Of a stretch of 39,903 bases of DNA, positions 1-39,903 are shown piece after piece. Position numbers and translations under genes: made by a program. The stretch comes from a virus. Its lineage: Duplodnaviria > Heunggongvirae > Uroviricota > Caudoviricetes. Each line of letters begins with the position of its first letter. The first letter of the stretch is position 1. The notes under the pieces are model-generated. The model was given only the letters and a program-made list of their open reading frames with translations, searched no databases and had not been told where the DNA came from. Where the stretch lies: IMG/VR virus record IMGVR_UViG_3300018486_000049, positions 1 through 39,903 of that record; one strand, given 5' to 3'.

Positions 1-21
1 AGACGTGTGCTCTTCCGATCT
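1..21. other. Illumina TruSeq adapter remnant at contig end (non-biological)
   Basis: Nt 1-21 AGACGTGTGCTCTTCCGATCT match, from memory, the 3-prime end of the TruSeq read-2 adapter reverse complement; the gpD reading frame continues from nt 22. Confidence 0.8.
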
Positions 22-422
22 GCTATCGAGCTGACGATTGCGCCGAGCGTGGTGTCATGCCATGACTCCTCACGACGGGAATTAAGCGTCCCGCGAAAAT
101 CCGCACCCCGGGCGCGAATGGTTACCGTATCCGGCGCCCCCCGGTGCTCTACCTCATCGACGGTAAATCGCCCCTTGCTGACCAGAGAGAAACCTTTCCA
201 CCCGAGATACAGCGACAGCACCGCACCGCGAATCGGCAATGCGACCAGACCGTCAGTATCGTCGAGCTCGATGTCGAGCTGGTCGGCCTCAAAACCCCGA
301 TTGTCCGTCATCGAGAGGTTAATCAGCCGGTCACTGATATTGCCGGTGATATCTTTGCTTTCCAGTGTCAGCATAAAGTCGGGCGTCAGCGTGGCACCCG
401 CGCCGGTGATAATATCCAGCAT
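22..422 (-). CDS. D: Tail protein D (gpD), N-terminal part only, truncated by contig end
   Basis: Minus-strand ATG at 422-420 overlapping the gpU stop; hand translation MLDIITGAGATL...SMTDNRGFEADQLDIELDD parallels the N-terminus of the complete gpD copy at 32192-33292; not in the ORF track because it has no stop in the window. Confidence 0.75.
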
Positions 423-424
423 GA

Positions 425-889
425 TTACGCCCCCACCATCGACAGCAGATCGCCAGCTTTCCCGACCAGACTTTCGGCCTGTTTTCCAATATCGCCATAC
501 ACCGCGGCGAGCGACTCATCGACACGGGTCAGTGACAGGGTGAAGCTGATTTTTCGTGGCGTCCCATCCTCAAAAAATACCGTGCCGGTCTCCGAGACAT
601 TACTGACAACAAACATCCCGTAAATCCAGCCTGAGCCAGAGATAAGCGGCCATGCGCGCCCCTGTTCAGCCATTGCATAAAGCGCCAGCATCGTGAGCTT
701 ACCGCCGGTCAGCTCAGGATACAGGTCACCGCTCAGGGTGATTTTATCTTCCCCCTCGCCGAGATACTGAAAAGCGTCACGCTTCCCGATGCGAGAGTTT
801 GACGCCCAGCTATAATCCGCGCTGCGCTGCATGCTCTGGTAGGGCAGCGTCTGACGCATAAAAACAAACATACCTAATGCCAGCATCAT
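425..889 (-). CDS. U: Tail protein U (gpU)
   Basis: 154 aa ORF, clearly homologous to the second copy at 33289-33774; sits between tape measure and D as in P2. Confidence 0.85.
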   Translation of the reverse strand: MMLALGMFVFMRQTLPYQSMQRSADYSWASNSRIGKRDAFQYLGEGEDKITLSGDLYPELTGGKLTMLALYAMAEQGRAWPLISGSGWIYGMFVVSNVSETGTVFFEDGTPRKISFTLSLTRVDESLAAVYGDIGKQAESLVGKAGDLLSMVGA

Positions 890-900
890 AATCAGTCTCC

Positions 901-3330
901 TTAGTCATGCATCATGCTTGCGCGGGCTTTGGCGCGCTTCTCGCGCTCATACTTTTCTAATGCATCCTGCAAATCATTACCCAACCGATCTCCCGGCATA
1001 CCATTGCCCGGCACGGTGATTTGATAGATTGGCCGACTCTGGTCGATGTAGGTTTTACCGGCGGGTGCCGTGACCGGCTGATAGCTGTTGTATGCGCTGA
1101 TTGCCGGGCTGTAACCGTTCTGCGTCGCTGCATTGGCTTTCGCCGCTGTCTGGTCAAGTGAGCTGGATTCTTTGTTGATAATGCCGAGTTTTTCGAGCAC
1201 CCAGTCAATCCCGCTTCGCAGCTTGTTAAAGGCGTTAAGCGGCATCAGCAGCGCATCGGCCAGCGTCTGACCGAACATAACCCCAACATCACGACAACTG
1301 TTGAGCGTGTCCTGAGTCGCTTTCACCGGCGCTATCAGGTCTTTAAACCACTGCCAGACGCCGCGAAGTTTTTCGCCGAGACCGTCGAAAATGGGTGCCA
1401 GCGGGGCGAACATTTCCCCGACCGGCGCAAAGGCACTCATGAGCCCCTCGACCACACCGGCAAAGAATGCGCTGACAGGCTCCCAGTATTTACGGATAAG
1501 CAGCGCGCCAGCGACAACAGCCGCCGCTACCGCCACGACAGGCCACGTAATAGCACCAATAGCCGCAATGACCCCGCCACTGATTGTCGTAAAGACCGCA
1601 CCAAGCGCACCAGCCGCCGAAATGATGGCGTTAATGCCAGTAATTACCGGCCACGATACAAGGCCAATGGCACCAATCATCCCCACAATACCGACAGCTG
1701 CCGCCGTAATGACACCCAGCGTGGTGGCAAGAGATTTGTTCTTTTGGATCCAGCTATCGAGCCTCAATACATACCCTGTCGTCGTTTGTACCAGCTTTCT
1801 TAATGATGACTCTTGCTGGTCAAACAGGTCGGTTCCTACCGCTTCATACGCAGACTGAAACTCTTTAAAATCGCCGCCGAGGTTATCCTGCATGACCTTC
1901 ACCAGCTCAGCGGTTTTGCCATCCGATGCTTTAAGGGAAGCGGTAAGCTGGTCTAATTTCCCGCTCGAGGCAGCGGTCATGAGTACCGCAGCCGACGAGC
2001 TGGCCTCTTCACCGAAAATGGTTTTCATATATTCGGCACGCTGGCCGGTGCCGAGGTTGTTTTTATCAAAACTCCGCTGCATTTCTTTCAGGATGGTAAA
2101 TATTGGACGTGTGTTCCCCTTACCATCAGCCGTTTTGACGCCGAGCTCTTTAATGGCGTCATACGCTTTGCCCGTTGGAGCCTGCAGGCGACTTAATACG
2201 GCACGGCTCCCCGTACCCGCCATCGATCCCGTAATTTTGGCGTCATGCAGTGCGCCGACCATTGCGGCTGTTTCTTCGATGCTGACCCCGGCATTTTTCG
2301 CCACCGGCGCGGCATAAGTCAGCGCATCACTCAGGCCGTCAAAGTCGGCGGCGGTTTTGTTCATCGTCATCGACAGAACATCACCGATATGGGCGACCTT
2401 ATCGTTTGAAAGCTGGAAGGCAGAGCGCATCCCCATCAATAACCCGGCGTTCTCTTCCATCGTTCGACGGTTTGCGAGCGCCATATCGAGTGTTACGGGG
2501 GTAGCGGCCTGAATAGCCGCAGCATCGCCGCCAGCCTTTGCAATAATAATCTGAGCACCGGCAGCATCATCAGCCGACGCGGCGGTGTTGTCACCGAGCT
2601 GGCGCGCCTGTTTGCGGAGCGCCACCATATCAGCTGAGTCTTTACCGACACCGAGAACGGCCTGTAACTCAGAGTTTTTCTGAGCAAAATCATAACCGGG
2701 CTTCATCAGTGCAACACCGGCAAGCGCTCCGGTCGTTGCCATGCCTATCCCGGCAGCGCCCATCGATGCCGCATTTCCAGCCAGTGCCTTTCCTGCCTGA
2801 TAGCGTTTTTGTACTGCGCTGAGTTTTGCCTGTTGCGCGCTGACCCGCGCCAGTGCTTCATGCTGGCGGTTAAGTTGTGCGGTAGTTTCATTGATAGAGT
2901 TTTTCAGGCGGCTTTCATCATTCGACAGATTGCGCGTATTAATCCCCGCTTTGCCGAGCTCGGTCTGTTGCCGCTTCACCGATTGGGTGAGGCTGTTATA
3001 TTTTGCCTGTAACCCTTCAGCCGAACGCTTTGCTGATTCCAGCACTCTGGCCTGTGCCGCCGTTGGCCGTTCCGTGTTTTTAAACTGCACCGCCAGCTCG
3101 GCGGCTTCCTGTTTTGCCTTTTCCAGTGCCTGTCCGGTTACCGCCAGTTGTGCGCTGGTTTTGCGAAAACCGTCGATTTTCGATGCCTGACCATTCAAAT
3201 CACGCAGGGATTGCTGAGTCGTGCGGATATCGCCAGACAGCGATTTGCTCGCCGTCTGGATCGCTTTAAAGGGTCGGGTCGCCTGGTCGACAGCTTTCAG
3301 CAGCACTTCGAGTTTGAGGTTATTACTCAT
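901..3330 (-). CDS. T: Tail tape measure protein (gpT), 809 aa
   Basis: Long Ala/Gly-rich protein with coiled-coil N-terminus and hydrophobic C-terminal third, located after E/E-prime as in P2. Confidence 0.9.
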   Translation of the reverse strand: MSNNLKLEVLLKAVDQATRPFKAIQTASKSLSGDIRTTQQSLRDLNGQASKIDGFRKTSAQLAVTGQALEKAKQEAAELAVQFKNTERPTAAQARVLESAKRSAEGLQAKYNSLTQSVKRQQTELGKAGINTRNLSNDESRLKNSINETTAQLNRQHEALARVSAQQAKLSAVQKRYQAGKALAGNAASMGAAGIGMATTGALAGVALMKPGYDFAQKNSELQAVLGVGKDSADMVALRKQARQLGDNTAASADDAAGAQIIIAKAGGDAAAIQAATPVTLDMALANRRTMEENAGLLMGMRSAFQLSNDKVAHIGDVLSMTMNKTAADFDGLSDALTYAAPVAKNAGVSIEETAAMVGALHDAKITGSMAGTGSRAVLSRLQAPTGKAYDAIKELGVKTADGKGNTRPIFTILKEMQRSFDKNNLGTGQRAEYMKTIFGEEASSSAAVLMTAASSGKLDQLTASLKASDGKTAELVKVMQDNLGGDFKEFQSAYEAVGTDLFDQQESSLRKLVQTTTGYVLRLDSWIQKNKSLATTLGVITAAAVGIVGMIGAIGLVSWPVITGINAIISAAGALGAVFTTISGGVIAAIGAITWPVVAVAAAVVAGALLIRKYWEPVSAFFAGVVEGLMSAFAPVGEMFAPLAPIFDGLGEKLRGVWQWFKDLIAPVKATQDTLNSCRDVGVMFGQTLADALLMPLNAFNKLRSGIDWVLEKLGIINKESSSLDQTAAKANAATQNGYSPAISAYNSYQPVTAPAGKTYIDQSRPIYQITVPGNGMPGDRLGNDLQDALEKYEREKRAKARASMMHD

Positions 3331-3756
3331 TCGTGTTTCCGCTTCGCTGTAGCGCTTTTTCGCGCCAGTTGACGAGTTCGGTCAGGCTCATGGGATACAG
3401 GTCTGATGGCGACCAGTGGAAAATTACCGCTATGTCAGCCATCAGGTCATCGACCGAGAGTTTTTGCGGGAAGGTTACGCCGCCTAACTCGGTGACAAAA
3501 AACCGACCACCTTACCGGCAAACGACAGCAGGTCGGGCAGCTCCAGTGCGGCGGCTTCCTGCTCGGTCAGCGACGGCATGGTCATGCGCGGCAGCACTTT
3601 AATCAGCGCATCGACGTCAGAGTTTGCGACAGATGCCAGGCTGACACCGCGAAGGGTTCCGGCACACGGTTTTAACAGGGTGACGTCGGTAATAACCTGC
3701 TCACCGCGCTTAATGGGTTTAATCAGAGTGACGATATTTTCGTTAGTTTTATCCAT
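3323..3756 (-). CDS. Tail assembly chaperone E+E-prime, produced by -1 programmed frameshift
   Basis: Slippery TTTTTTG (plus-strand CAAAAAA at 3496-3502) 10 nt before the E stop; the -1 frame stays open to a TAA at 3323-3325 overlapping the T start codon; same architecture in the second copy. Confidence 0.6.
3484..3756 (-). CDS. E: Tail assembly chaperone gpE
   Basis: 90 aa ORF between FII and T; ends just after a TTTTTTG slippery heptamer. Confidence 0.8.
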   Translation of the reverse strand: MDKTNENIVTLIKPIKRGEQVITDVTLLKPCAGTLRGVSLASVANSDVDALIKVLPRMTMPSLTEQEAAALELPDLLSFAGKVVGFLSPS

Positions 3757-3818
3757 GATATTTCTCGTTAAATTCTGGTTTCAGGATGCCCGGCCAGCCA
3801 TGCTGACCGGGGCATAAA

Positions 3819-4337
3819 TTACAGGCCGATATTTTGTCGGTGCGCCTCGAGCATGTCGGTGCCGTTCACTTTTTCGATGAGGTTCACGGTGTCGATTTCC
3901 ACCAGTTCCGAGCCATTCATCGTCAGCTTGAAATAGGTACACGCGAGAGCGATTTTCGACTCGGTGTCTTCGCCCTGTTTGGCTTCACCGAGGTCGATTT
4001 CTTTCTGACGGCCACGGAGAACAACCTCAACCGGCACGGTCTCGCCGGTGTCATCACGCTGGTAAGACCCGGCAAAACGTAGCGGTACGGAGGCCGCGCC
4101 GGTGGCAGCGTATAACGACCAGATAGCGTCATCGGGGAAGCCGCCGAGAGAGATTTCAGCCGACAGCGCATCGTCATCGAGGCCGAGGTCGACCGGTGCC
4201 GAACCATTCATCCCGCCGCCGCGATAGTTCTCGAGCTTGCGGGTTAATTTCGGCAGCGTGACGGACTGCACGACGCCGAGATAACTCACCCCATCGATAA
4301 ACAGGTTCATGAGTTTGAGCTTGCGCGGTAATGCCAT
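3819..4337 (-). CDS. FII: Tail tube protein FII
   Basis: 172 aa ORF after the sheath gene, homologous to copy at 37332-37847. Confidence 0.9.
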   Translation of the reverse strand: MALPRKLKLMNLFIDGVSYLGVVQSVTLPKLTRKLENYRGGGMNGSAPVDLGLDDDALSAEISLGGFPDDAIWSLYAATGAASVPLRFAGSYQRDDTGETVPVEVVLRGRQKEIDLGEAKQGEDTESKIALACTYFKLTMNGSELVEIDTVNLIEKVNGTDMLEAHRQNIGL

Positions 4338-4349
4338 TTGTCAGGCTCC

Positions 4350-5537
4350 TTATTTGCTGTTGACGGACGAGATAAGATTCGCCAGATATTTATCAGTAAT
4401 GCGCTGGCGTAAGGTCAGGTGTTCGAGTGGCGGCACCGGCGTATAGTCATAATCGATAAACAGTTTCCCGGCTTTCAGGGTTTCTTTACTGTTGGCCTCT
4501 TCGTCAAACCAGCACGTCGCATCGATGATGTAACCGCCGGTTTTCAGCTCGCGGAATTTCGCGTTGATGCCGTCGATAATGTCGCGAATCAACGTCGCGG
4601 TGATGGGCTTATCGTTCGCCCACATATGCCCCTCGGCTATTGTGTCGGCTATGACCTGTGCGGTGCGGGTGTAGTTCTCAAACTGAAACAGCGGGTCATC
4701 GGAGCAATTACGGTTACCCCAGAAGCGGAAACCATCGGCACGAATCAGCGTCGTAACACCGGCCTCATTCAGCAGGTCGGCATCAGTGCCAGATTCCTGC
4801 AAATCCCAGAAGACCGACGCACTGATACCGGTGACGCCATTGATGCCGACGTTTGACAGGGTTTTATGCCAGCCTGTGTCATTGTCGATTTTTGCGCGCA
4901 GTCCCAACGCGATCGCTGTTGCATAACTGGTTGTGGTCGCGTTGGCCGTGGTATCCCACCCGAGGAAGTCAGGCCAGATAATCATGAGCTCACGGGCGCT
5001 GAAGTTTTCGCGGTAGGCGATAACGTCAGCAATGGTTTTACAGCCCCACGCGCTGACATAGGCGAAAGCGCGCAGCTTCTGAGCCACGGAGACAAGCGCG
5101 GTCGCCACCTCCTGAGTATCGAGCCCCGGCACACCGAGAATACGTGGCTTCACGCCGGTGACCGCTTTCGCCGTTAACAGCGCTTTCATCCCGGTATATT
5201 TGCCATTCTCATCCGTGGTGCCGATGATGTTAGAAATGGTTTGCGCCTGTGCCTCTTCGCCGTCGCCGGTACCCTCCGCGACACGCACAACAACGACAAC
5301 CGGTTTTGACTGGTTAGCGATGAGCTGTAAGGATTTTGCCAGGGTACCTTTAGTACCGGCTTTTGCGATGGCGCTTTGTGGGTTGGTAATCAGCACCGGC
5401 TCATTGAGAGGGAAAGCCCCGGCGTCAGCATCACTGGCTGTGCAGACCATGCCAACGACCGCCGTTGATACCGTCGAGATTGTGCGGGTGCCGTCGTTAA
5501 TTTCGACGACCTCGACACCGTGATGATAATCACTCAT
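4350..5537 (-). CDS. FI: Contractile tail sheath protein FI
   Basis: 395 aa, homologous to copy at 37857-39029, classic P2 FI-FII-E-T-U-D order. Confidence 0.9.
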   Translation of the reverse strand: MSDYHHGVEVVEINDGTRTISTVSTAVVGMVCTASDADAGAFPLNEPVLITNPQSAIAKAGTKGTLAKSLQLIANQSKPVVVVVRVAEGTGDGEEAQAQTISNIIGTTDENGKYTGMKALLTAKAVTGVKPRILGVPGLDTQEVATALVSVAQKLRAFAYVSAWGCKTIADVIAYRENFSARELMIIWPDFLGWDTTANATTTSYATAIALGLRAKIDNDTGWHKTLSNVGINGVTGISASVFWDLQESGTDADLLNEAGVTTLIRADGFRFWGNRNCSDDPLFQFENYTRTAQVIADTIAEGHMWANDKPITATLIRDIIDGINAKFRELKTGGYIIDATCWFDEEANSKETLKAGKLFIDYDYTPVPPLEHLTLRQRITDKYLANLISSVNSK

Positions 5538-5601
5538 CCGTTTAACTCCGTTAGTTGAGGTGAGTGATATTGTCTGGTTTACGCCTGTATGCGGCTATTT
5601 G

Positions 5602-6180
5602 TCAGGGTTCGCCGGTGGCTGACACAACGGGATTTGTCGCCGGAAATTTTTTATACAGCGTCGATATGCCCACATCAAAAATCAGTGCAACACGCTGTCG
5701 GGATTCTCCGGCCGCAATCAACCGGCCAGCCTGAGCCCATTCATCAGGCGTCAGCTTCGGCCTACGACCTCCGATCCTGCCTTGTGCCCGGGCTGCATCC
5801 AGCCCGGCGCGGGTTCGTTCGACGATTAACTCGCGTTCCATTTCTGCAAGAGCGCCCATGATGTGAAAGAAAAATCGCCCCATCGGGGTTGAGGTATCAA
5901 TACTGTCGGTCAGGCTTCTGAAATTAACCCCTCGCTGGCGAAGCTCTTCAGTCATAGAGACAAGATGGCGCATGCTACGCCCGAGCCTGTCGAGCTTCCA
6001 GACAACGAGAGTATCACCGGCATTAAGTTGCCTGAGTGCGCGATTTAACCCTGGCCTGTTTGTCGATTTACCGCTGATTTTATCCTCGAAAATTAGCTCA
6101 CATCCCGACCGTTCCAGCGCGTCACGCTGTAGCGCGGTATTTTGTTCATTTGTTGATACGCGCACATAGCCAACCTGCAT
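5602..6180 (-). CDS. Serine recombinase, DNA invertase of the Hin/Gin/Pin/Cin family
   Basis: [13 protein letters not shown]... with catalytic Ser in the RVS motif, conserved [12 protein letters not shown] and C-terminal HTH; ATG at 6180 preferred over the TTG at 6198; adjacent to an invertible segment. Confidence 0.9.
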
Positions 6181-6236
6181 TTGTTTTCCCTCATGCAAAA
6201 GCCCAAATGATGCCAGCTAGGGGGGAAAACTACATT

Positions 6237-6260
6237 TTCTTAAACGTTGGTTTAGGAGAA
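6237..6260. repeat. gix-like inversion crossover site (invertase-proximal)
   Basis: TTCTTAAACGTTGGTTTAGGAGAA; inverted copy of the half-site GGTTT(A/G)GGAGAA also at 8160-8185 and again at 39796-39819; resembles the 12-2-12 gix/hix architecture. Confidence 0.6.
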
Positions 6261-6599
6261 GCGGCTAAAAGGAATGTAGGGACAGGGGCAAATCAGATAC
6301 CTGATATGGGTAGCTTCACGCTTTCTGTTTCAGGTACTGGATATCAAAAATTACCATCAGGTTTTATTCTTCAGTGGGGCTCAATCGGCGCACCAGGCAT
6401 TGCACAGGATGTAGTAACCCATTTCCCGATTGCATTTCCAAACAGATGTCTGCGTGTTTTGGTCTCACAAGACTACACACCAGATAGCGGGGCTGTTGGT
6501 TATATTGCCTGTGCAGGTTTTAGTCCCGACCCGGTTAAATTTATATCCAGAGCCAGTACTCCTGGCCTCGGCGCTTCATTTTTAGCGTTAGGCTGTTAA
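6237..6599 (+). CDS. Alternative tail-fibre C-terminal variable segment (currently silent orientation, no own start)
   Basis: Plus-strand frame open through the crossover site reading [11 protein letters not shown]..., in the same frame relative to the site as LTYLGLGEGSA in H, so inversion would fuse it in frame to the constant part of H. Confidence 0.55.
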
Positions 6600-6620
6600 T
6601 TTAGCTATATGGAGTGAAAA

Positions 6621-7061
6621 ATGAATTACATATATTCCGCGACTACAAACTCTTTCTATCCGCTGGAGATGAAAGAGGATTACACTCAAGCTGACTCATG
6701 GCCAGATGATGCTGTTGAAGTTGATGAGCAAGTGTATATTGCGTTTTCCGGATTACCGCCGAAAGGAAAAATCCGTATCGCTGGAGAAAATGGTTTTCCT
6801 GCATGGTCTGAAATTCCACCACCAACACATGAGGAACAGATTGCTGCAGCCGAACAGGAAAAGCAGCAACTGATTAATCAGGCCAACGATTATATGAACA
6901 GTAAACAATGGCCTGGTAAAGCGGCTATTGGTCGTCTGAAAGGTGAGGAACTGGCGCAATATAATTTGTGGCTGGATTATCTGGACGCACTGGAGCTGGT
7001 CGATACTTCCGGTGCGCCAGATATTGAATGGCCTACGCCTCCGGCAGTTCAGGCCAGATGA
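6621..7061 (+). CDS. Alternative tail-fibre assembly chaperone (silent-orientation partner)
   Basis: 146 aa ORF directly after the alternative fibre segment; its C-terminus converges on that of the minus-strand chaperone. Confidence 0.7.
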   Translation: MNYIYSATTNSFYPLEMKEDYTQADSWPDDAVEVDEQVYIAFSGLPPKGKIRIAGENGFPAWSEIPPPTHEEQIAAAEQEKQQLINQANDYMNSKQWPGKAAIGRLKGEELAQYNLWLDYLDALELVDTSGAPDIEWPTPPAVQAR

Positions 7062-7638
7062 CATCCGGCGCGGTGCTGGTATCTGTTGCCGTCACCGCGT
7101 CAATGTAATCCAGCGCAGCGTTAAGTCGGGCGGTTTCTGCCTGCGTCAGATTCCGTCCGGCCTGCAATTTCAGCTGAATCAGACTAATGGAAGCCATTGC
7201 AGTATCAATCAGTGACTGACGCTGTGCTTCTGCCGCGCCTACTGCGGCGCTATGCTGTGCCACAGTATCTGTTACCCATTTCTCACCATCCCATTCATCG
7301 TATGGCGTTAACGGGGCGATAGTGGTTGTATTTTCAGGATAATCACCCGGAGCTGTGATTTCTTTCGATTCTCCTGTTTCGGTGCTATAGATGATTTCAC
7401 CGCGATGGTCTGACACATATTCCCATGAGTTTAAATCTGCCGAACGGCAGATTGCATAACCCGCCTTATGTGTGCCAGGAGCATCTAAACAGGAATATGC
7501 AGGGATACCGACACCCACAGCAAGATATTCAGTTGATGCAGAAATATACTCCCGTGTCTCACTGTCATAGTTATAAACGGTAATCTCTCCTGCCTTTGTG
7601 GCAATAAATTTACTATTCAAGATGGCGTTATACATCAT
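7033..7638 (-). CDS. G: Tail-fibre assembly chaperone gpG
   Basis: 201 aa ORF immediately after H, start overlapping the H stop. Confidence 0.8.
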   Translation of the reverse strand: MMYNAILNSKFIATKAGEITVYNYDSETREYISASTEYLAVGVGIPAYSCLDAPGTHKAGYAICRSADLNSWEYVSDHRGEIIYSTETGESKEITAPGDYPENTTTIAPLTPYDEWDGEKWVTDTVAQHSAAVGAAEAQRQSLIDTAMASISLIQLKLQAGRNLTQAETARLNAALDYIDAVTATDTSTAPDVIWPELPEA

Positions 7639-11645: not shown

Positions 11646-11691
11646 AGGGAAAGGTTGCCATCAGGGGAAGAAAGGCGGCAGTGCTGCAACT

Positions 11692-11709: not shown

Positions 11710-11713
11710 AAGA

Positions 11714-13482: not shown

Positions 13483-13483
13483 T

Positions 13484-28916: not shown

Positions 28917-28918
28917 CA

Positions 28919-29968: not shown

Positions 29969-29969
29969 T

Positions 29970-30575: not shown

Positions 30576-30611
30576 AATTAACCTCAATGTATGAATCTTA
30601 ATTCATATACA

Positions 30612-30640
30612 TTGACACTGGTTATACATACAGTAAAAAT
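30612..30640 (+). promoter_or_regulatory. Candidate promoter for int downstream of the cargo cassette
   Basis: Perfect TTGACA -35, 17 bp spacer, weak AAAAAT -10, preceded by an AT-rich inverted repeat (30587-30612). Confidence 0.3.
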
Positions 30641-30664
30641 GCTCTCCACTGGAGGGCATTTTTT

Positions 30665-31717: not shown

Positions 31718-31880
31718 TAACCACCACTGACCACCAACCCAACTTATTGTTTTTACTCTAACTTATTGTTTTCATTAACCCGTTTACATAAATGGGTTTT
31801 TTGTTGCCTGAAATTTATGCCGTTTAAAATCATGATGTTAGAAGCACTGTTTTTTAACGATGGCGACAAATTGGCGGCAG
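31678..31880. repeat. att-like junction flanked by an imperfect 20 bp direct repeat
   Basis: TGGCGACAAAGTGGCGGCAG (31678-31697, inside the int 3-prime end) and TGGCGACAAATTGGCGGCAG (31861-31880, next to the ogr stop) flank an AT-rich 160 bp segment. Confidence 0.45.
31741..31772. repeat. Tandem 13 bp direct repeats in the att region (possible Int arm-type sites)
   Basis: AACTTATTGTTTT at 31741-31753 and 31760-31772; followed by a weak hairpin plus T-run (31777-31802). Confidence 0.4.
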
Positions 31881-31882
31881 AG

Positions 31883-32101
31883 TCAAAGAGAGAGCACCAC
31901 CTGTCCTGATTTCATTGGATGCGGCTGAACCGGATTTGACTCTTTTGGCGTTGCAATCGAACGAACAAAAGTTTCATGGGTAACAAAAGTATGGCTGCAG
32001 TTAATGTTCTGGCACTGGTTGTAACGCTCTTTGGTCAATGAAGATACCTGAAAACTGCTGCGAGTATGGGCGGCACTTCCACACAGTGGGCAAATCATCA
32101 T
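31883..32101 (-). CDS. ogr: Late gene activator Ogr/Delta-family zinc-finger protein
   Basis: 72 aa from MMICPLCGSAAH... with CPLC...CQNINCSH zinc-binding pattern matching Ogr as recalled. Confidence 0.85.
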   Translation of the reverse strand: MMICPLCGSAAHTRSSFQVSSLTKERYNQCQNINCSHTFVTHETFVRSIATPKESNPVQPHPMKSGQVVLSL

Positions 32102-32191
32102 TTTTCGAGTTCTCCCCATTTTTGCTAAATTCACAATAATGATACCGCATTATTCCATTTTGAAAACTTAAAAGTTCTCTATTACGAAGAA

Positions 32192-33292
32192 TCATTCCAT
32201 TTCGAAATCATTAATCTTCACTTCAAGCTCCAGACTGGTCGTAAAACCGTTATCCGGATTGACAGTATGCGTCAGGGTGGTAATAGTCCATTCCGCATCA
32301 TCTATCGGCTGTTTAAAGCCTCTGACTTTCACTGGCATTTCCGTGTAGAGATCCGCCCGACCTTCTGCCAGTTGTAGCGAGAATGACGCAACGCCACGTT
32401 GCAGGCGTTCCCACTGCATTTTCGCCGCCCGTTCGGCGTTGCTCCGGTTGGCATAGGTGCGATTAAGTACCAGCACGTTTTCATCTGTACCCACCAGGTA
32501 ATCGCCCTGCTTCGCTTCCGGCTCTTTCTTCTGCTTCTTAGTCCTGCGCTTACGCTTCACCGTGGTGCTTTCTTTCTTCGCGGGTTCGCGGGTATGCAAC
32601 CAGCTGGCAATTACGCCCGTGTAGGCTCCGCGATCTGCCAGGGTAAAGCGGTGACTGTCGCCGTCCTTACGTGTGATAGTGATAACCGGTAGTGGTTTAC
32701 CGCTGGCGCTTTTACCCTGTCCCTGCCGGATGAATAACAGATTGCCATTTTTCACCGACGCAATAGCACCGTACTGGCGCGCCAGCCGCATCAGAAAACT
32801 GCCGTCACTCTCATTGGTCTGGTCTATATGCTCCACAGGTTTATCCGACAGGTCTTCACCCAATGCCATCTTCAGTTTGTGCCGCGCAGCTATTTCCTTC
32901 ACCACTTCCCCAACGGTGGTCTTGTGCCACGATTTTTCACGGCGGGTATTCAGGGTTTCACGAAAATCAGCACTTCGCGCCCGGATAGTCAGGCGGTCCG
33001 GTGCGCCAGTGTGTTCAATCTCGTCCACCGTGAATGCTCCTTTCGGGAAAAGCGACTGCCCCTTCCAGCCCAACGCCAGCGTAATGACCGCACCACGGCG
33101 CGGCAGCACGATTTTTCCGTCGGCGTCGTCCAGCTCCAGATCAAGCTGGTCCGCTTCAAAGCCCCGATTGTCCGTCAGCGTCAGACTCATCAGGCGGTTA
33201 TCCAGCACAGTGGTGATATCCTTACCCTCAATACTGATGCTGAATGCCGGAGTTTTGTTGCCTTTGCTAAGCAGTTCAGAGCTGAAATTCAC
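32192..33292 (-). CDS. D: Tail protein D (gpD), second diverged copy
   Basis: 366 aa, start overlaps the U stop, precedes ogr as in P2. Confidence 0.85.
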   Translation of the reverse strand: MNFSSELLSKGNKTPAFSISIEGKDITTVLDNRLMSLTLTDNRGFEADQLDLELDDADGKIVLPRRGAVITLALGWKGQSLFPKGAFTVDEIEHTGAPDRLTIRARSADFRETLNTRREKSWHKTTVGEVVKEIAARHKLKMALGEDLSDKPVEHIDQTNESDGSFLMRLARQYGAIASVKNGNLLFIRQGQGKSASGKPLPVITITRKDGDSHRFTLADRGAYTGVIASWLHTREPAKKESTTVKRKRRTKKQKKEPEAKQGDYLVGTDENVLVLNRTYANRSNAERAAKMQWERLQRGVASFSLQLAEGRADLYTEMPVKVRGFKQPIDDAEWTITTLTHTVNPDNGFTTSLELEVKINDFEME

Positions 33293-33774
33293 GACAGCAG
33301 CCCTCCCACCGTTTTACTGATATCGCTTAAGGCAGACGTTGTCGTATCCTGCAAATTATTCAGCTGCGCACTGAGATCACCGAACATATCGGACAGGGAT
33401 TCATCCACCCGTTTGAGCGACAGGGTGAACTCAATCCGGCGCGGCATACCATCGCGGAAAAACTCCGTTTTAGTCTGATTCAGTCCCTCAATCACATACA
33501 TGCCGTAAATCGTGCCGCTGCCTTCAATCAGGGGCCATGCTTTCCCCTGTTCTGCCATCTGCTCCAGTGCCAGCAACGACAGCCTGCCGCCTGTTATTTC
33601 CGGCATAAGAACACCGGAAAGCGTCAGCATGTCGTTTTCCGGTCCCAGAAACTGCGTAGACGGACGTCGGTTTACCCGACTGTTTGCCGCATGTCGCCAG
33701 CTGCGTTGATACTGCAGTTCCTGATACGGAACGGTGCGCAGCATAAACACGTACAATCCCAGCACCATCATCAT
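33289..33774 (-). CDS. U: Tail protein U (gpU), second copy
   Basis: 161 aa, homologous but clearly not identical to 425-889. Confidence 0.85.
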   Translation of the reverse strand: MMMVLGLYVFMLRTVPYQELQYQRSWRHAANSRVNRRPSTQFLGPENDMLTLSGVLMPEITGGRLSLLALEQMAEQGKAWPLIEGSGTIYGMYVIEGLNQTKTEFFRDGMPRRIEFTLSLKRVDESLSDMFGDLSAQLNNLQDTTTSALSDISKTVGGLLS

Positions 33775-36700
33775 GCGTCGTATCCCCCCTGATCGCTGTA
33801 GTTACTCCTGGCTTTTGCCTTCAGCCTGCGTTCACGTTCATCAAGCTGGCGTGCCACCTCCCGCGCAATATCCTGCGCACTTTGTCCTGGCTGCGTCTGA
33901 ATGATGATCTGCGTCGGTGCCTCAATCCGTTGAACGAGCGGCACAGTGGCTGCGCGACTCACAATTGCTTCTCCACCTTTCGCGGGAAGTGCCAAAGGGT
34001 GCAACGGTGGAAGCTCTGCTGGCGCGGCAGCAACGCCCATCATTCCGGCAACAACGGCAGCCAGTGCAGCTGTATTTCTCCGGCTGGTCACATTTGCCGG
34101 GCCGTTAACAATTTCCGGCCCGTTTTCACCGACGATGCCAAACTGCCCGCGCGGGATATACCCGCCGCTGTCATACATCCCCGCAAAGCCATATCCCCAT
34201 GATGGAAAACCACCCGATGGCATCATCACTTTACCGTCTGCATTCACCGTCGCAGGTTGCTGACGCGTCACGCTTTCCGGCAGTTTTGCCTTTGCGGCCT
34301 CTTTACTGACAATGCCGAGCTTCTCCAGCAACCAGGAAACGCCGGATTTCAGGGAGTCCAGCGGATGCATGACCATATTCAGCCCTTCCGCCAGTGCCTC
34401 CCCGAATCGCCGCCCCATTGCCGCTGCGCTCTGCAGTTCGGCAGAGGTCGACTTAACGGGCGTCAGCAGATCAGTAAACCAGCCCCACAGCGCCTGCACT
34501 TTGTCGCCAATCCACTGGAACACGGGCTTAAGCGGTTCGAACGCTGCACTGATGGGACCTGCCGCCGCTTTGAATCCTTCCACCACGCCACCGAGAAATG
34601 CGGTGATGGGTTGCCAGTATTTCCAGACAACCAGCGCCACGCCCGCCAGTGCAGTAACCACAAGACCTATCGGACTGAGCAGAGCACCTAACAGACCAGA
34701 TATGGCATACAGGGCAACGCGCAGCATCGCCAGTGGACCAGATGCCAGTACTCGCAGCACCGTGCCTGCGGCGGCCAGTCCACCGCGCAGTACCGCCAGA
34801 GGATTCATAAACATCACAGCAACAGCACGTAAACCGGATAATCCAGACCGCAAAAGTGCAACCGGCGCACCTGCTACAGTTTTCAGGACATTTCCCGTCA
34901 GTGATGCCGTGCGGCGCAAAGACGACAACGGCGCAGTAAGTAAACCTGCGGCGTTGCCCGATGAAGCAAGCCCGCGTCGCAGCAGTGCCAGTGGTGCGCC
35001 AGCCAGCCAGGACAACGCGCTGCTGGTTCGAGTTACTGCTGCCGTAACGGAAGATAACGTTTTGATACCCAACACAGAGAATCCCAGACGGATCACTGCC
35101 AGCGGCCCCAGCACTGCAGCCAGCGCCACCGCTAAGGTGCCGAGGCCGACGGTAACCGCAGCCACAACAGCCGATGCTTTCATCAGTGTGCCTGTCAGTT
35201 CCGGGTTAGCTTCCACCCAGCGACGCAACGCCCCCGTGACGCTTTTCACCGTGTACAGAATATCCATCAGCGGCTGGCGCAGCGTTTCGCCCAGGCTGCT
35301 GAAGGTGTTCTGCGCTCCGGTTTTGACCAGCAACCACTGCGCAGAAAGTGAATCCTTGTTAATGTCGGATTCTTTCTGCATGGAGCCGAGCGCATCATTG
35401 CCCGCTGTCAGTTTTAACTGACGCTGCAGTTCCGGCAGGTTGTTTGCCAGTTTCGCCGCGTCATCGCCAAACTCTTTACCAAACAACATAGTCATGGCAG
35501 ACAGGCGCTTGTCCTGCGGCAGCGCGTTTACCTTCTCCAGCACGCGCTGGATGGTTCCCATCGCATCCTTCGTCATCTGCTTTTCAATCACTTCAGGATT
35601 GAGTTTCAGCAGATTCATCCCTTCAAAGAAACTCTTGCTTTGCATGGTGGCAATGGACAATTCACGCACCATCGCGTTTGCTGCACTGGCTGCAACCTCT
35701 GGCGCAGCGCCCAGTGTCAGGAAGGTGGAACCCAGCGCCGCCGCTTTACGATAATCCAGACGGTCAGCCACACCGCCCAGACGTTGCATCACATCAATGA
35801 TGTCTGCCCCTTTCGACATGGCGTTATCATCCAGATAGTTCAGCGCATCACCGAGCTGTTCAATATTGCGGGTGGGGATTTTGTAGAGCTGGGCGATTTT
35901 CCCCAGACTTTCTGACAGTTCATCCGCTGGCAGCTCAAAGGCTGTTGCCGCCTTTGCTGCCGTACTGGCGAAGGCCAGCAGGTCACGTTTCTGATCTTCC
36001 CAGCTGTCGTCAGGGTTTGCGACGTTCATGCGCGCACCACCTTCAACCAGTGCAGCGAAGTCCACCGCACCGTTTTCCATCGGCAACTGTTCGCTGGCAG
36101 CCTTGATGGCATCCTGCATTTCATAAAAACGTGCAGTGCGGTTGCCATTATCGTCACGCAAACCATTGACCTGCTTTGCCACACCTTTCATGGCATCTTC
36201 CATGCTGGTATAGCTTTTTACTGCCGCCATCACTGGCGCACCCATTGCCAGCCCTGCAGCCGTGGTGGTGGCTCCGGCACCTGCAATACGATCACGCACC
36301 TCCAGCGAACGGGCATAACTGGCACGCGCTGCATTCATCCTGCGCTGAGCTTCCCCCAGTCGCTTCAGCCGCGCCTCCTGTTTCGAAAGTTCCTGGTTAT
36401 AACGTGATGTTTCACGGGCTAAACGGGCAGTTGCTCCCGCATCGTCTTTCGCAGAAATTCCCGCCCGGTACAGTTCAGCACGCACAAGCGCCGTCTGCTG
36501 CTGCAGCTTTTTCTGGCGTTCTTCCAGGCGCTGAACAGCCAGCCGTTGACGGCCCAGAGCAACAACCTGACGTTGCGAAGGCGGCCCCATCGCTCCCAGT
36601 TCCTGACTGAGCAAATTTGCACGCTGGCGGGCATAGTTCAGCCTGTCGCCTAATTTCTGATTTTCTGCCTGCAGCTTTCGGAAGCTGTCCAGACTGCTCC

Positions 36701-36848
36701 CGGCCTGATCAAGCTGCTTTATTGCATCGCGGGATTTTTTGACAGCAGCAGCCAGTTCTCTTGAACTGGCCTGCGCAGATCGAAATGGGCGGGTGAGCTT
36801 GTCAACCGCATTAAGAATGACCTGCAGACGCAGGTTGTTATCACTCAT
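33771..36848 (-). CDS. T: Tail tape measure protein (gpT), second copy, 1025 aa
   Basis: Coiled-coil N-terminus, hydrophobic repeats, 216 aa longer than the first copy. Confidence 0.9.
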   Translation of the reverse strand: MSDNNLRLQVILNAVDKLTRPFRSAQASSRELAAAVKKSRDAIKQLDQAGSSLDSFRKLQAENQKLGDRLNYARQRANLLSQELGAMGPPSQRQVVALGRQRLAVQRLEERQKKLQQQTALVRAELYRAGISAKDDAGATARLARETSRYNQELSKQEARLKRLGEAQRRMNAARASYARSLEVRDRIAGAGATTTAAGLAMGAPVMAAVKSYTSMEDAMKGVAKQVNGLRDDNGNRTARFYEMQDAIKAASEQLPMENGAVDFAALVEGGARMNVANPDDSWEDQKRDLLAFASTAAKAATAFELPADELSESLGKIAQLYKIPTRNIEQLGDALNYLDDNAMSKGADIIDVMQRLGGVADRLDYRKAAALGSTFLTLGAAPEVAASAANAMVRELSIATMQSKSFFEGMNLLKLNPEVIEKQMTKDAMGTIQRVLEKVNALPQDKRLSAMTMLFGKEFGDDAAKLANNLPELQRQLKLTAGNDALGSMQKESDINKDSLSAQWLLVKTGAQNTFSSLGETLRQPLMDILYTVKSVTGALRRWVEANPELTGTLMKASAVVAAVTVGLGTLAVALAAVLGPLAVIRLGFSVLGIKTLSSVTAAVTRTSSALSWLAGAPLALLRRGLASSGNAAGLLTAPLSSLRRTASLTGNVLKTVAGAPVALLRSGLSGLRAVAVMFMNPLAVLRGGLAAAGTVLRVLASGPLAMLRVALYAISGLLGALLSPIGLVVTALAGVALVVWKYWQPITAFLGGVVEGFKAAAGPISAAFEPLKPVFQWIGDKVQALWGWFTDLLTPVKSTSAELQSAAAMGRRFGEALAEGLNMVMHPLDSLKSGVSWLLEKLGIVSKEAAKAKLPESVTRQQPATVNADGKVMMPSGGFPSWGYGFAGMYDSGGYIPRGQFGIVGENGPEIVNGPANVTSRRNTAALAAVVAGMMGVAAAPAELPPLHPLALPAKGGEAIVSRAATVPLVQRIEAPTQIIIQTQPGQSAQDIAREVARQLDERERRLKAKARSNYSDQGGYDA

Positions 36849-37277
36849 CGTTGGCCCCGCTTCTCTGAATCGCTTTATACCGCCATTCCAGCACTTCGGT
36901 CAGCGGCATAACGTCAGTAACGGATGGCGGCCAGTGAAAAATGGTGGCGATATCTGCCACCAGATCGTCAACCGTCAGGCTGTCGGTAAACCGGCAAGCA
37001 CCGACTTCTTCAACAAAAAAGTGACAACCTCAACCGACATGGCAGTGAGATCTGCCGGGTCCATCTCTGCAATTTCCTGTGCAGTCAGTGCCGGACTGGA
37101 GATGCGGGGGATCACGGTCATCATCGCGTTTACATCCATATCCATAATGGCCTGCAGGCGTGTACCGCGCAGCGCACCGGACTGCGGTTTACGCAGCACA
37201 ATTTCGGTGATTTCTGTTTTACCGCGCTTGATGGGGGTATCCAGTTGAATGGTCTTTTCAGTCTGCTTATCGCTCAT
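36841..37277 (-). CDS. E+E-prime -1 frameshift product, second copy
   Basis: Plus-strand CAAAAAA at 37014-37020; -1 frame open to a TGA at 36841-36843 overlapping the T start. Confidence 0.6.
36975..37277 (-). CDS. E: Tail assembly chaperone gpE, second copy
   Basis: 100 aa, ends just after a TTTTTTG slippery site. Confidence 0.8.
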   Translation of the reverse strand: MSDKQTEKTIQLDTPIKRGKTEITEIVLRKPQSGALRGTRLQAIMDMDVNAMMTVIPRISSPALTAQEIAEMDPADLTAMSVEVVTFLLKKSVLAGLPTA

Positions 37278-37331
37278 TTTGCTGTCCTGTCAATTGGGTT
37301 CTGGCGCGGTATCCCGCGCCGTTCAGATATA

Positions 37332-37847
37332 TCAGAGGCCGAGGGCGTTGCGGTGCGCTTCCATCAGGTCCACACCGTCCACAATTTCCACCATGTTGAT
37401 AAGGTCCACTTCATAGAGCACCTCACCATTGATGGTCAGCTTCGCGTAGCTGTTGGTACTGGTCACTTTGGTGGTGTTGCTTTCGCCCGTCTTCCACTCG
37501 CCGGAATCCACTTCTTTGTGACGTCCACGCACGACAAGCTCCACGGCCTGCACTTCCCCGGTATCGTCACGCTGAATAGAGCCGGTAAAGCGCAGCTGGA
37601 TGCCATCCACCGTGGCTTTACCCATCTGTTTAAACAGCAGCAATTCAGTACCACCAATGGAAAATTCTGTGTCCAGCGCACTGTCATCAAGCCCCAGATC
37701 CACATCCACCGCACCCGGCATTCCGCCGCCGCGATACTTCTCATATTTGCGGGTAAATTTCGGCAGCGTCAGCGACTCAACGATCCCCTGCCAGTTGTTC
37801 CCGTCGTTAAACAGGTTCAGGTGTTTTAATTTGCGTGGTAATGCCAT
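37332..37847 (-). CDS. FII: Tail tube protein FII, second copy
   Basis: 171 aa, homologous to 3819-4337. Confidence 0.9.
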   Translation of the reverse strand: MALPRKLKHLNLFNDGNNWQGIVESLTLPKFTRKYEKYRGGGMPGAVDVDLGLDDSALDTEFSIGGTELLLFKQMGKATVDGIQLRFTGSIQRDDTGEVQAVELVVRGRHKEVDSGEWKTGESNTTKVTSTNSYAKLTINGEVLYEVDLINMVEIVDGVDLMEAHRNALGL

Positions 37848-37856
37848 GTTGTCCCC

Positions 37857-39029
37857 TTACGCGCTGACCTGGCTGGCGAAATTCACCAGGTACTGATCGG
37901 TGATGCGCTGACGCAGCATCAGGTTTTCAAGTGGCGGCACTGGCGTGTAGTCGTAGTCGATGGTGAGTTTTCCGGCTTTCAGCGTGTCTTTGTCGTTCAC
38001 CGACTCATCCAGCCAGCAATCACCACCAATGAGATAGCCCTGACTGACCAGGCTGCGCATTTTGGCGCGGATACCTTCGATAATGTCGCGGGCCAGCGAC
38101 GGGTTAAGCGGTTTATCCACCGCCCACATGTGTGCTTCTGCCATCGTGTCCATCAGCACCTGCGCCGTGCGGGTGTAGTTTTCGAAGGCAAAGAGCGGGT
38201 CATCACTCAGGCAGCGGGAACCCCAGAAGCGGAAACCGTCTTTACGCACAAGCGTGGTGACGTCGTTCTGGTTCAGCAGACCTGCATCGGTTGCCGGGTC
38301 CTGCAGATCCCAGAACACATCTGCAGAAATTCCGGTGACACCGTTCACGCCCACGTTGGACAGGCTTTTGTGCCATCCGGTCTGCTCGTCAATTTTGGCG
38401 CGCAGACCAAGCGCACGGGCGGTGGCATATGCCGTTGCTTCGGCATTCAGCACCGTGTCCCAGCCAGTAAAGTCAGGCCAGATCAGCATCCCTTCGCGCT
38501 GGCTGAAGTTTTCGCGGTAAGTGATCGCCTCCTGCACTGTCTTGCAGCCATACGCTGACAGGTAAGCAAATCCACGCAGGCTTTGCGCCACGCTCAGCAA
38601 CTCAGTAGCTACCGCCTTGGTGTCGTGGCCTGGCACGCCGAGAATGCGCGGTTTAACGCCGAGCTGTGACTGGGCAGATAACAGGGCTTTCATACCTGTT
38701 TTTTTACCTTCAGCAGTCACTGCGCCGATGATATTGGTCGTGGTTTCGTCTTCCGTTTCACCCTGCGGCACACGCACAACAATGGTCACGGGTTTTGCCT
38801 GGTCAGCGATGGCATCCAGCGAACGGGCCAGAGTACCTGACTCACCCGCTTTACCGCTGGCAGTCAGCACATCAGTGATCAGCACGGGTTTATTAAGAGG
38901 AAACATTTTTGCATCGGCATCATCGCCCGTGCAGACCATACCCACGATGGCGGTGCTCACCGTGGTAATAGATCGGGTGCCTTCGTTGACTTCAACAACG
39001 CGCACCCCGTGGTGGTAATCCTGAGCCAT
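37857..39029 (-). CDS. FI: Tail sheath protein FI, second copy
   Basis: 390 aa, homologous to 4350-5537. Confidence 0.9.
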
Positions 39030-39105
39030 AGTGGCGAACCTCCTGATTGGATTAGGCTTCGCCCTATGTTGAAGTGATTGTGCCTGACAAACAGCTAAGC
39101 GCAGT

Positions 39106-39123
39106 TGTGTCGTTATTCACACA
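39106..39123. promoter_or_regulatory. Candidate Ogr-type late activator site (TGT-N12-ACA) upstream of FI copy 2
   Basis: TGTGTCGTTATTCACACA, about 85 bp upstream of the FI start codon. Confidence 0.45.
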
Positions 39124-39171
39124 AAATAACGGTATTTGTCTGCTTGCAGGGATAATCAACATAATGCTGAT

Positions 39172-39738
39172 TCAGGGGGATTCATTGATCTTATTTGCCG
39201 GAAATTTTCTATAAATGGTAGAAACGCCTACATCAAAAATCAGTGCAATACGCTGTCTTGATTCTCCGGCCTCGAGTAAACGCCCAATCTGTGCCCACTG
39301 TTCGGTGGTCAACTTAGGACGGCGTCCACCTACTCTGCCTTTGGCACGAGCTGCAGCCAGCCCTGCCCTGGTACGTTCAACTATCAGTTCGCGTTCCATT
39401 TCAGCCAGGGCACCCATGACATGAAAAAAGAAACGGCCCATTGGGGTACTGGTATCAATACTGTCAGTCAGGCTTCTGAAATTCACACCACGCTGGCGCA
39501 ACTCTTCTATCAGCGTAACAAGATGCCGCATACTGCGCCCCAACCTGTCCAGCTTCCAGACAACCAGCGTGTCTCCTGCCGATAGTGTCCTGAGTAGTTT
39601 TTTCAGCCCCGGTCTGTCGGACTTAGTGCCACTGATTTTGTCCTCAAAAATCTGCTCACATCCCGCGCAGTTCAGTGCATTACGTTGCAAATCGGTGTTC
39701 TGGTCATTTGTTGACACGCGTACATAGCCAATAAGCAT
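39172..39738 (-). CDS. Serine recombinase, DNA invertase (Gin/Pin/Cin-like), second copy
   Basis: [22 protein letters not shown]... closely resembles Gin/Pin as recalled; catalytic Ser in RVS. Confidence 0.9.
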   Translation of the reverse strand: MLIGYVRVSTNDQNTDLQRNALNCAGCEQIFEDKISGTKSDRPGLKKLLRTLSAGDTLVVWKLDRLGRSMRHLVTLIEELRQRGVNFRSLTDSIDTSTPMGRFFFHVMGALAEMERELIVERTRAGLAAARAKGRVGGRRPKLTTEQWAQIGRLLEAGESRQRIALIFDVGVSTIYRKFPANKINESP

Positions 39739-39795
39739 GATCATCCCCCTGAATAAAAACCGGAGATGATGCCAGTTAGCTGTTACCTCTGCATT

Positions 39796-39819
39796 TTCTT
39801 AAACGTTGGTTTGGGAGAA
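39796..39819. repeat. gix-like crossover site of the second prophage
   Basis: TTCTTAAACGTTGGTTTGGGAGAA, near-identical to 6237-6260. Confidence 0.55.
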
Positions 39820-39903
39820 GCGGCTAAAATGAATGTAGGCACATTGGCGAATCATATACCTGATATTGGTATCTTCACGCTTTCTTTTTCAGGTACTGGA
39901 TAT
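39796..39903 (+). CDS. Start of alternative tail-fibre variable segment of the second prophage (partial, runs off the window)
   Basis: Frame reads [36 protein letters not shown], parallel to 6237-6360 in copy 1. Confidence 0.5.

Follow-up and report, generated by a model that had tools for sequence, protein, structure and literature searches.

The window, the whole 39,903-nucleotide stretch of viral DNA analyzed here, most likely comprises one complete, circularly permuted genome of an Escherichia coli P2/186-like phage (Y) together with a misassembled foreign tail block from a second phage (X), rather than a tandem array. Both component phages are already described, Y as a 186-like phage integrating at rybB and X as a P2-like prophage adjoining rplS. 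Their lengths account for the window exactly: 21 (adapter) + 6,266 (X) + 33,559 (Y) + 57 (overlap) = 39,903. The first-pass annotation had recognized more than one genome length, and this stands, as a 33,559-bp circle of Y plus the X tail block. Its preferred reading, two tandem prophages joined through an att-like junction, is not supported: the attP is internal to Y, with Y genes on both sides. We favor instead what it had listed as an alternative, a chimeric short-read assembly, on the basis of a Y-only circle, a shared repeat of at least 349 bases and artefactual contig ends.

Table 1. Features of the window (percentages are protein identities between the left, X, and right, Y, tail blocks)
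Feature	Positions	Strand	Remarks
Illumina TruSeq adapter remnant, AGACGTGTGCTCTTCCGATCT	1-21		marks short-read contig end
Prophage X tail module	22-6287	-	P2-like; genes D to invertase
X D, N-terminal 133 codons	22-422	-	65%
X U	425-889	-	55%
X T, 809 aa	901-3330	-	28-41%, local matches only
X GpE'	3323-3442	-	59%
X E	3484-3756	-	43%
X FII	3819-4337	-	54%
X FI	4350-5537	-	67%
X Gin-type invertase	5602-6180	-	81%
X crossover site	6237-6261		
Sv'	6207/6262-6599	+	Gp53-like_C
Invertible (G-type) tail-fibre segment	6262-8158		bounded by sites 6237-6261 and, inverted, 8159-8186
X/Y-identical stretch	6288-6639		inside Sv' (gp53-like C-terminal) coding part
Tail-fibre assembly gene	6621-7061	+	
Tail-fibre assembly gene	7033-7638	-	
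Variable 3' part of fibre gene H	within 6262-8158	-	
Tail-fibre gene H, 528 aa	7635-9221	-	Pfam; constant N-terminal part beyond crossover site 8159-8186
Y baseplate, tail-completion, lysis, head and packaging genes	9218-20470		ORFs and Pfam labels of identical contig
Y I	9218-9823	-	
Y J	9816-10763	-	
Y W	10711-11070	-	
Y V	11067-11645	-	
Y S, R, lysB/lysA, lysozyme, holin, X, L	between V and M	-	
Y M	14959-15609	-	
Y N	15613-16671	-	
Y O	16688-17521	-	
Y P	17664-19430	+	
Y Q	19427-20470	+	
Y variable cargo, portal gene Q to replication gene A	20526-22287		DUF6953, small DUF2158-like, DUF8087, DinI-like gene; G+C 43%
Y early operon	22567-27994	-	Pfam PF05840, PF02086, PF06892 and others
Y replication endonuclease A, 804 aa	22567-24981	-	PF05840
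Y Dam methylase, TraR/DksA-like, DUF2732, DUF5347, Fil-like	within 22567-27994	-	early operon
Y CII	27123-27632	-	
Y small Apl-position gene	27665-27886	-	
Y lysogeny module	27975-31717	+	
Y CI repressor, 313 aa	27975-28916	+	two HTH domains
Y DUF4747-like protein, 349 aa	28919-29968	+	low-GC cargo
Y membrane protein, 201 aa	29970-30575	+	low-GC cargo
Y tyrosine integrase	30665-31717	+	
Y attP: P arm, core, P' arm	31718-31882		between int (+) and ogr (-)
Y tail module	31883-39829	-	identical to Y circle contig
Y ogr, 72 aa	31883-32101	-	PF04606
Y D	32192-33292	-	
Y U	33289-33774	-	
Y T, 1025 aa	33771-36848	-	
Y GpE'	36841-36960	-	
Y E	36975-37277	-	
Y FII	37332-37847	-	
Y FI	37857-39029	-	
Y invertase	39172-39738	-	
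Y crossover site	39796-39820		
Error-rich terminal read	39830-39903		homologous to 6271-6344

Two tail modules

The ORF map reveals the P2 late gene order, with Q/P divergent from O N M L X, followed by lysis, R S V W J I H, fibre assembly, FI FII E/E' T U D and ogr. A contig identical in sequence carries Pfam labels for portal, terminase, GPO, P2 capsid, GpR, tail S, baseplate V/W/J and Tail_P2_I and, among the tail and late genes, for sheath, tube, TAC_7, GpE, tape measure, GpU, GPD and Ogr_Delta. Two further traits of P2-like phages (Peduoviridae) are present: a rolling-circle replication endonuclease, GpA, and the zinc-finger late activator Ogr. For the single cos site expected between Q and the early region, a cos consensus that may itself be wrong gave no match. 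Host DNA is absent from the window.

As previously claimed, the D-U-T-E-FII-FI-invertase block occurs twice. The copies are homologous but diverged, at 28–81% protein identity, and stem from different phages rather than from a collapsed repeat; their tape measures are indeed 809 and 1025 aa long. At the DNA level only three stretches can be aligned, at 67–76% identity.

The left block belongs to prophage X. From 22 to 6639 the window has no differences over 6,618 bases from a prophage of E. coli FORC 064, with differences starting at 6640, and the X block of E2348/69 and other complete genomes is 99.7–99.9% identical. The FORC 064 copy adjoins rplS and has its own baseplate and head genes. P2-like prophages of this rplS-adjacent type (FORC 064, E2348/69 and others) have the 809-aa tape measure and the invertase of the left block, but past the invertible segment they continue into their own fibre, baseplate and head genes, whereas the window continues into phage Y. 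In E2348/69, X is accompanied by a Y-type prophage 2.1 Mb away, which shows that poly-lysogeny involving distinct sites occurs naturally.

The right block belongs to Y. It is 99.4–99.8% identical to prophages in which the ogr end abuts rybB/ybjL and the invertase end leads into Y-type H, I and J. This module is found in thousands of public contigs; some 30 were inspected, and in all of them (∼30/∼30) it is linked to Y-type I, J, W and V. In nearly all public contigs inspected, the module and its integrase are sited at rybB; at the other end, the identical integrase leads to rcdA. The foreign piece is the left tail module rather than the right, attached within the invertible tail-fibre segment.

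Circle closure and the rybB attachment site

Positions 6288–39846 hold the entire 33,559-bp genome of Y, a phage that is 186-like and belongs to the P2 family. A MEGAHIT contig, ERZ27272478 k141_10022 (33,700 bp), which may derive from another sample than the window, matches 6291–19221 and 18919–39829 without mismatch. Over the 119 bases compared, the end of this contig is an exact copy of its start, making it circular with a period of 33,559, equal to 39903 minus 6344; 33,700 is this period plus k = 141. The circle closes without the first (X) tail block. A related contig, 33,463 bp long and built by metaSPAdes, also has int-attP-ogr followed by the invertase, the G segment and H without interruption, and in independent contigs from both assemblers the Y backbone closes on the second tail module.

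P2 packages unit-length, cos-delimited genomes, and its head is sized for ∼33 kb. A genuine ∼39.8-kb genome of one phage with two tail modules would be difficult to reconcile with this mode of packaging, with the 33.4–35.6 kb of related packaged or complete genomes, with closure of Y at 33,559 bp lacking the extra module or with the adapter that truncates the left D gene. Only the contiguity of the contig speaks for such a genome, and we consider it highly improbable.

The ogr/att/int junction proposed at first pass to be attP-like is an exact P-core-P' structure. Its left part is identical to the int-side ends, and its right part to the ogr-side ends, of prophages in other genomes (attR and attL of single prophages, aligned), and the two parts overlap in a 19-bp core, ATGGGTTTTTTGTTGCCTG, at 31792–31810. 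This core has the same sequence as the 3' end of rybB, a host sRNA gene, and Rfam identifies RybB at attL with 103 bits. Y integrates by its tyrosine integrase at this 3' end, with rcdA/ybjK on one side and ybjL on the other. The same int-attP-ogr junction is present in three other assemblies. It is a real junction, of a kind expected of a free circular phage genome as well as of a tandem array, and it reflects either circular Y or Y in tandem with itself. With attP intact, Y is thus seen here either as a circle that replicates after excision or as a prophage duplicated in tandem.

Could the junction nonetheless separate two different prophages? Such an array would read rybB, ogr1-D1 to int1, attP, ogr2-D2 to int2, rcdA, with the first phage combining the X tail with a Y backbone. 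The P-core-P' structure is what this arrangement predicts, and the site does hold tandems in two complete genomes (FDAARGOS_1248 and CFSAN061772), and in no others of 5,426 complete E. coli genomes is int-attP-ogr uninterrupted. Their int-attP-ogr-D junctions resemble that of the window at 96.5–97% identity; however, both are copies of the same prophage, with the same protein accessions in each unit and host genes flanking them, unlike the two diverged modules of the window. Y genes at 6288–31717 continue past attP into 31883–39846, so the att site does not join two phages. Nor do X and Y share an attachment site, as an array demands: relatives of X integrate elsewhere (rplS in FORC 064) and Y at rybB. 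The left unit is likewise incoherent, since the link from X FI through the invertase to the Y baseplate genes occurs in 0 of the 5,426 genomes, where the best matches start only inside the invertase gene. From a tandem with both units equally abundant, a different assembler would not be expected to produce a clean circle of Y alone, and the window has neither flanking host DNA nor, at its adapter-derived left end, attL. We therefore hold a tandem of this kind to be quite improbable.

The invertible segment and the X-to-Y switch

The segment that follows the X block is of the Gin/Hin type, with a serine invertase (PF00239 and PF02796), inverted crossover sites and both orientations found among relatives, whose matches end at 39820 or start at 8159. 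Pfam domains within it are Gp53-like_C, Phage_tail_fib and Collar. Gin of Mu, Cin of P1 and Hin likewise comprise a serine invertase beside a ∼1.9 kb segment with two opposed fibre C termini and assembly genes, and the sites of the window resemble gix, are inverted and lie, for one of them, inside the fibre gene. Set against these systems the segment shows nothing unusual; it matters here as an assembly repeat, running through sequence that is partly identical in two co-occurring phages.

X and Y each possess a Gin-type invertase and an invertible tail-fibre segment, and they agree fully in its first part. The FORC 064 copy of X and the Y circle overlap in at least 349 identical bases (6291–6639), and the alignments place the switch from X to Y within 6288–6639, not at att. 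Bases and half-sites beside each invertase are parental, with the X-specific A at 6254 and 6287 and the Y-specific G at the equivalent positions 39813 and 39846, so the join was not made by an invertase at its own crossover site.

Both ends of the contig are read artefacts. The first 21 nucleotides are AGACGTGTGCTCTTCCGATCT, the 3' end of the TruSeq adapter. BLAST matches to X begin only past position 21, and the left D is just the 5' third of the gene, cut by the adapter; hence the left block starts at 22, as first annotated. At the other end, the last 74 bases contain eight mismatches to the Y circle contig, at 39830–39886, seven of them G>T, and these are the only mismatches in 20,985 bases. 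Here 39847–39903 re-enters sequence already present at 6288–6344.

These features are consistent with a model in which the contig is a lollipop-shaped path through the assembly graph, with Y as the loop and 6.27 kb of the X tail module (22–6287) as the stick. The assembler, unable to phase the shared repeat, would have run from the X invertase into the Y fibre genes, circled Y and halted on an erroneous read on meeting the repeat again. The source switches inside an identical stretch (at least 349 bases) longer than the k-mer, and one component, Y, closes on itself in an independent assembly. The best fit is thus a chimera assembled from a sample that was mixed or poly-lysogenic, and we infer that X and Y were probably unlinked in that sample. 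Against this, a simple-path assembler should break at a two-entry repeat, passage through which needs uneven coverage or greedy traversal, and real tandem prophages do exist at the rybB att site.

The same order would also result from a physical cointegrate, in which circular Y recombined with prophage or circular X through the shared fibre segment by RecA-dependent homologous recombination. The predicted arrangement is X tail, G segment, whole Y, G segment and remaining X; the window follows it exactly, and the switch lies inside the identical bases as expected. X and Y types can share one cell, as in E2348/69, and modules are exchanged among P2-like phages (PMC13586616). However, a repeat-crossing assembler yields this order too, both contig ends are artefactual, identical sequence forms a closed Y lacking X in an independent assembly, no complete genome holds the link from X FI to the Y baseplate, and the parental half-sites exclude an invertase-made join at its own crossover site. 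We regard a cointegrate as unlikely. If true, it would be a prophage within a prophage that could generate new tail and backbone combinations, and a real join would provide a small, concrete example of tail-module swapping between co-resident prophages.

Under the favored chimeric assembly, the window carries a caution: invertible tail-fibre cassettes common to co-occurring P2-like phages can fuse two phages into one over-length short-read genome. Where a contig of this sort contains an intact attP, it points to one phage in circular or tandem form rather than to a place where two phages meet.

Gene content of phage Y

The region from I to Q is 96–99.7% identical to Y-type prophages. The cargo between Q and A lies at a position described as a defence hotspot in P2-like phages (PMC13586616); PADLOC returned no matches within 20526–22287. 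The lysogeny switch is of the 186 type, with a CI (Phage_CI_repr and CI_C) divergent from the Apl-position gene, a CII (Phage_CP76) and Fil. The lysogeny module includes a low-GC two-gene cargo (G+C 33–39%), and in other genomes the position between cI and int is occupied by a KAP NTPase or an ATP-dependent nuclease.

The closest described relatives of Y are P2-like prophages of E. coli with the same att site, at the rybB 3' end between rcdA and ybjL: those of strains W, B and Crooks (Rybb*W, Rybb*B and Rybb*Cr), the Felsduovirus-type prophages of 'hotspot #29' and Escherichia phage Cartapus (Elveevirus) (PMC3032704, PMC10121019). Gene order and the 186-type CI/CII/Apl-position switch are alike, with 96–99.8% identity over most of the genome. 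These prophages are integrated, whereas Y is seen in its attP form. Only the cargo differs: Y has the DUF4747-like and membrane-protein genes between cI and int, a CI of 313 aa that contains two HTH domains, and tail-fibre alleles of its own. The exact H protein is found in one public contig only, the 33.7-kb Y circle.

Tail modules and the rybB attachment site

Genes of the P2 family run throughout the window, as judged from an ORF map and comparison with annotated relatives, and the block D-U-T-E'-E-FII-FI-invertase occurs twice on the minus strand, with the left D gene reduced to its first 133 codons. Because of the protein identities tabulated below, and because DNA-level alignment of the two blocks yields only three stretches (67–76%), the first-pass annotation was correct in describing a duplicated, diverged tail block.

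Features of the window and divergence between the two copies of the tail block
Feature	Window position	Protein identity between copies	Remark
Left tail module, from prophage X	22–6287
gix-like site, left	6237–6261
Invertible tail-fiber (G) segment	6262–8158
Phage Y	6288–39846		186-like
H, fiber gene of Y	7635–9221
Inverted partner of gix-like site	8159–8186		inside H
Q–A cargo	20526–22287
CI repressor	27975–28916		313 aa
cI–int cargo	28919–30575		GC 33–39%
att core	31792–31810		ATGGGTTTTTTGTTGCCTG
Tail module 2, of Y	31883–39829
gix-like site, right	39796–39820
D		65%
U		55%
T		28–41%	local matches only; 809 vs 1025 aa
GpE'		59%
E		43%
FII		54%
FI		67%
Invertase		81%

When window 31680–31960 is aligned with single-prophage ends, the int side (P arm) matches as far as a core and the ogr side (P' arm) from that core onward, the core being the overlap of the two ends. 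In the genomes read, an identical integrase leads to rcdA/ybjK, ybjJ, and ybjI, while the ogr end of tail module 2 adjoins ybjL, ybjM, and grxA in nearly all contigs read. In the host, integration takes place at the 3′ end of the sRNA gene rybB (Rfam RF00110, 103 bits), an insertion site of P2-like prophages already described in the literature (PMC3032704; PMC10121019). From the alignment of arms and core, the flanking host genes, and the rybB site, the int/ogr junction, first noted as att-like, is therefore a genuine attP. The core corresponds to the terminator end of rybB, and rybB at attL after integration retains a full-length Rfam match (79/79 positions), so the new 3′ end is provided by the phage. 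Within the window, no Rfam family reached its gathering score.

The arrangement int-attP-ogr-D is found in one piece in two complete genomes, FDAARGOS_1248 (NZ_CP069542.1), with one rybB prophage repeated in tandem, and CFSAN061772 (NZ_CP042893.1), with a tandem of two copies of the same deleted rybB prophage. Both CFSAN061772 copies lack the same internal stretch, from T to X, which means that the prophage was already defective when it was duplicated. The first-pass annotation had preferred tandem prophages, with chimeric assembly as the alternative. Tandems of two different phages did not turn up; each of the two complete genomes with int-attP-ogr-D carries copies of a single prophage. We regard such a mixed tandem as very improbable. 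Since the known tandems are copies of the same prophage, either a free circle or a same-phage tandem could be the source of the attP in the window; monomeric circles are the replication and packaging substrate of P2-family phages. The exact attP gave no match in scans of the viral_contigs or genome_contigs collections and one match in metagenome_contigs. A candidate tandem remnant, CP091832.1 (ogr beside invertase), was unusable because a stretch of Ns falls precisely on the junction, at a gix half-site.

A circular genome and its neighbor

The exact H protein is encoded by one public contig only, ENA ERZ27272478 k141_10022 (33,700 bp). The first 12,931 bases of this contig equal window 6291–19221 with no mismatch, and its bases 12,629–33,678 equal window 18919–39903 bar 8 positions. 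The end of the contig repeats its start exactly from contig position 33,560 (119/119 readable bases), which makes it a circle of 33,559 bp. The two copies in the window are offset by the same number (39903 minus 6344), and 33,700 is 33,559 + 141. On the circle lie the backbone, attP, and tail module 2, but not the left module; the path from invertase 2 to H across the invertible segment closes it. The window length resolves as 21 + 6,266 + 33,559 + 57 = 39,903. The same Y strain is integrated (int then rcdA) in Logan SRR21840004_47 and present with attP in Logan SRR6869079_342, and in a related Y (96% identity) a 33,463-bp metaSPAdes contig holds int-attP-ogr, invertase, the G segment, and H contiguously.

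In all of the approximately 30 public contigs read, beyond the invertase of tail module 2 come the same I, J, W, and V genes as at window 9218–11645, and some contigs with this module match at 99.3–99.7%. Look-ups of its T and invertase (T2 and invertase 2) returned common prophage contexts only, and as the exact H protein is in one other contig only, the window itself seems to be missing from the index searched. In 583 complete E. coli genomes, a single prophage of ∼34–35 kb covers at least 80% of window 15000–39903 in permuted order.

The left module (22–7000) is instead 99.7–99.9% identical to a different prophage, X, in FORC 064, E2348/69, and other strains; in FORC 064, the counterpart adjoins rplS and has its own fiber, baseplate, and head genes. 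Base by base, window 22–6639 shows no differences from FORC 064, with differences appearing from 6640 on and rising after 7000. In E2348/69, X lies at 2.98 Mb, and a Y-type prophage occupies the rcdA–ybjL interval at 0.85 Mb; with both types present there, a mixed X and Y source is plausible.

The switch from X to Y

Both phages encode a Gin-type invertase (PF00239, PF02796) and carry a gix-like site, TTCTTAAACGTTGGTTT[A/G]GGAGAAG. Two positions just inside this site distinguish X from Y (A at 6254 and 6287, G at 39813 and 39846), and X and Y are identical over 6288–6639. Judged from these markers and this identity, the switch lies within a repeat common to X and Y, at least 349 bases long, and not at att, where the two tail modules had been thought to join, or at the invertase crossover dinucleotide. 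The repeat exceeds common k-mers and typical 150-base short reads. Invertase crossover at the gix-like site was rejected as the maker of the join for the invertase-adjacent site, at which the site-proximal polymorphisms are parental. The matches of many relatives that start at 8159 reflect different fiber alleles or orientation, and an invertible segment in opposite orientation at the right window end was tested and ruled out.

A real recombinant cointegrate of X and Y would join the FI gene of X, through an invertase, to the Y baseplate. This link is present in 0 of 5,426 complete E. coli genomes, and the best complete-genome matches to it start inside the invertase gene; we consider a cointegrate unlikely, if slightly less so than the mixed tandem.

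The contig ends carry signs of an assembly artifact. Bases 1–21, AGACGTGTGCTCTTCCGATCT, are the terminal part of an Illumina TruSeq adapter; the reads behind the source assembly had not been trimmed. The 8 positions at which the window departs from the circle all lie in its last 74 bases, within 39830–39886; 7 of them are G>T, and their spacing leaves no clean 31-mer. They look like the product of a single low-quality read forming a contig tip off the graph. The last 250 bases share one 21-mer only with the rest of the window; this scarcity was dropped as an argument against a path re-entering a repeat, as sequencing errors in the terminal read account for it.

We thus favor, with good confidence, a repeat-crossing contig, in which a complete circular 186-like genome that integrates at rybB carries a spur of a second P2-like prophage. 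As a feature, the X/Y composite is probably not real; its components belong to kinds already known.

Cargo and repressor genes

The low-GC cargo between cI and int comprises two genes, for a 349-aa DUF4747-like protein and a 201-aa multi-pass membrane protein; PADLOC gave no match for it, nor did Pfam at gathering score. This version occurs in only 11 of 5,426 complete genomes. At this position, other E. coli prophages have either a KAP P-loop NTPase or an ATP-dependent nuclease, so the slot is variable and probably defense related. The second cargo sits between portal gene Q and gene A, a known hotspot, and comprises DUF6953, a small DUF2158-like protein, DUF8087, and a DinI-like gene, none with a PADLOC match. 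A search with a candidate cos consensus gave no match.

The CI repressor has two Phage_CI_repr HTH copies before the CI C-terminal domain; CI in related prophages is 189 aa, and E2348/69 has two adjacent CI genes in its place. In the rybB prophage of E2348/69 (NC_011601.1 873731–877216), V-W-J-I-H lies in inverted orientation with respect to the remaining late genes, and the adjoining S gene is truncated; this may reflect an aberrant large inversion involving the tail-fiber invertase.
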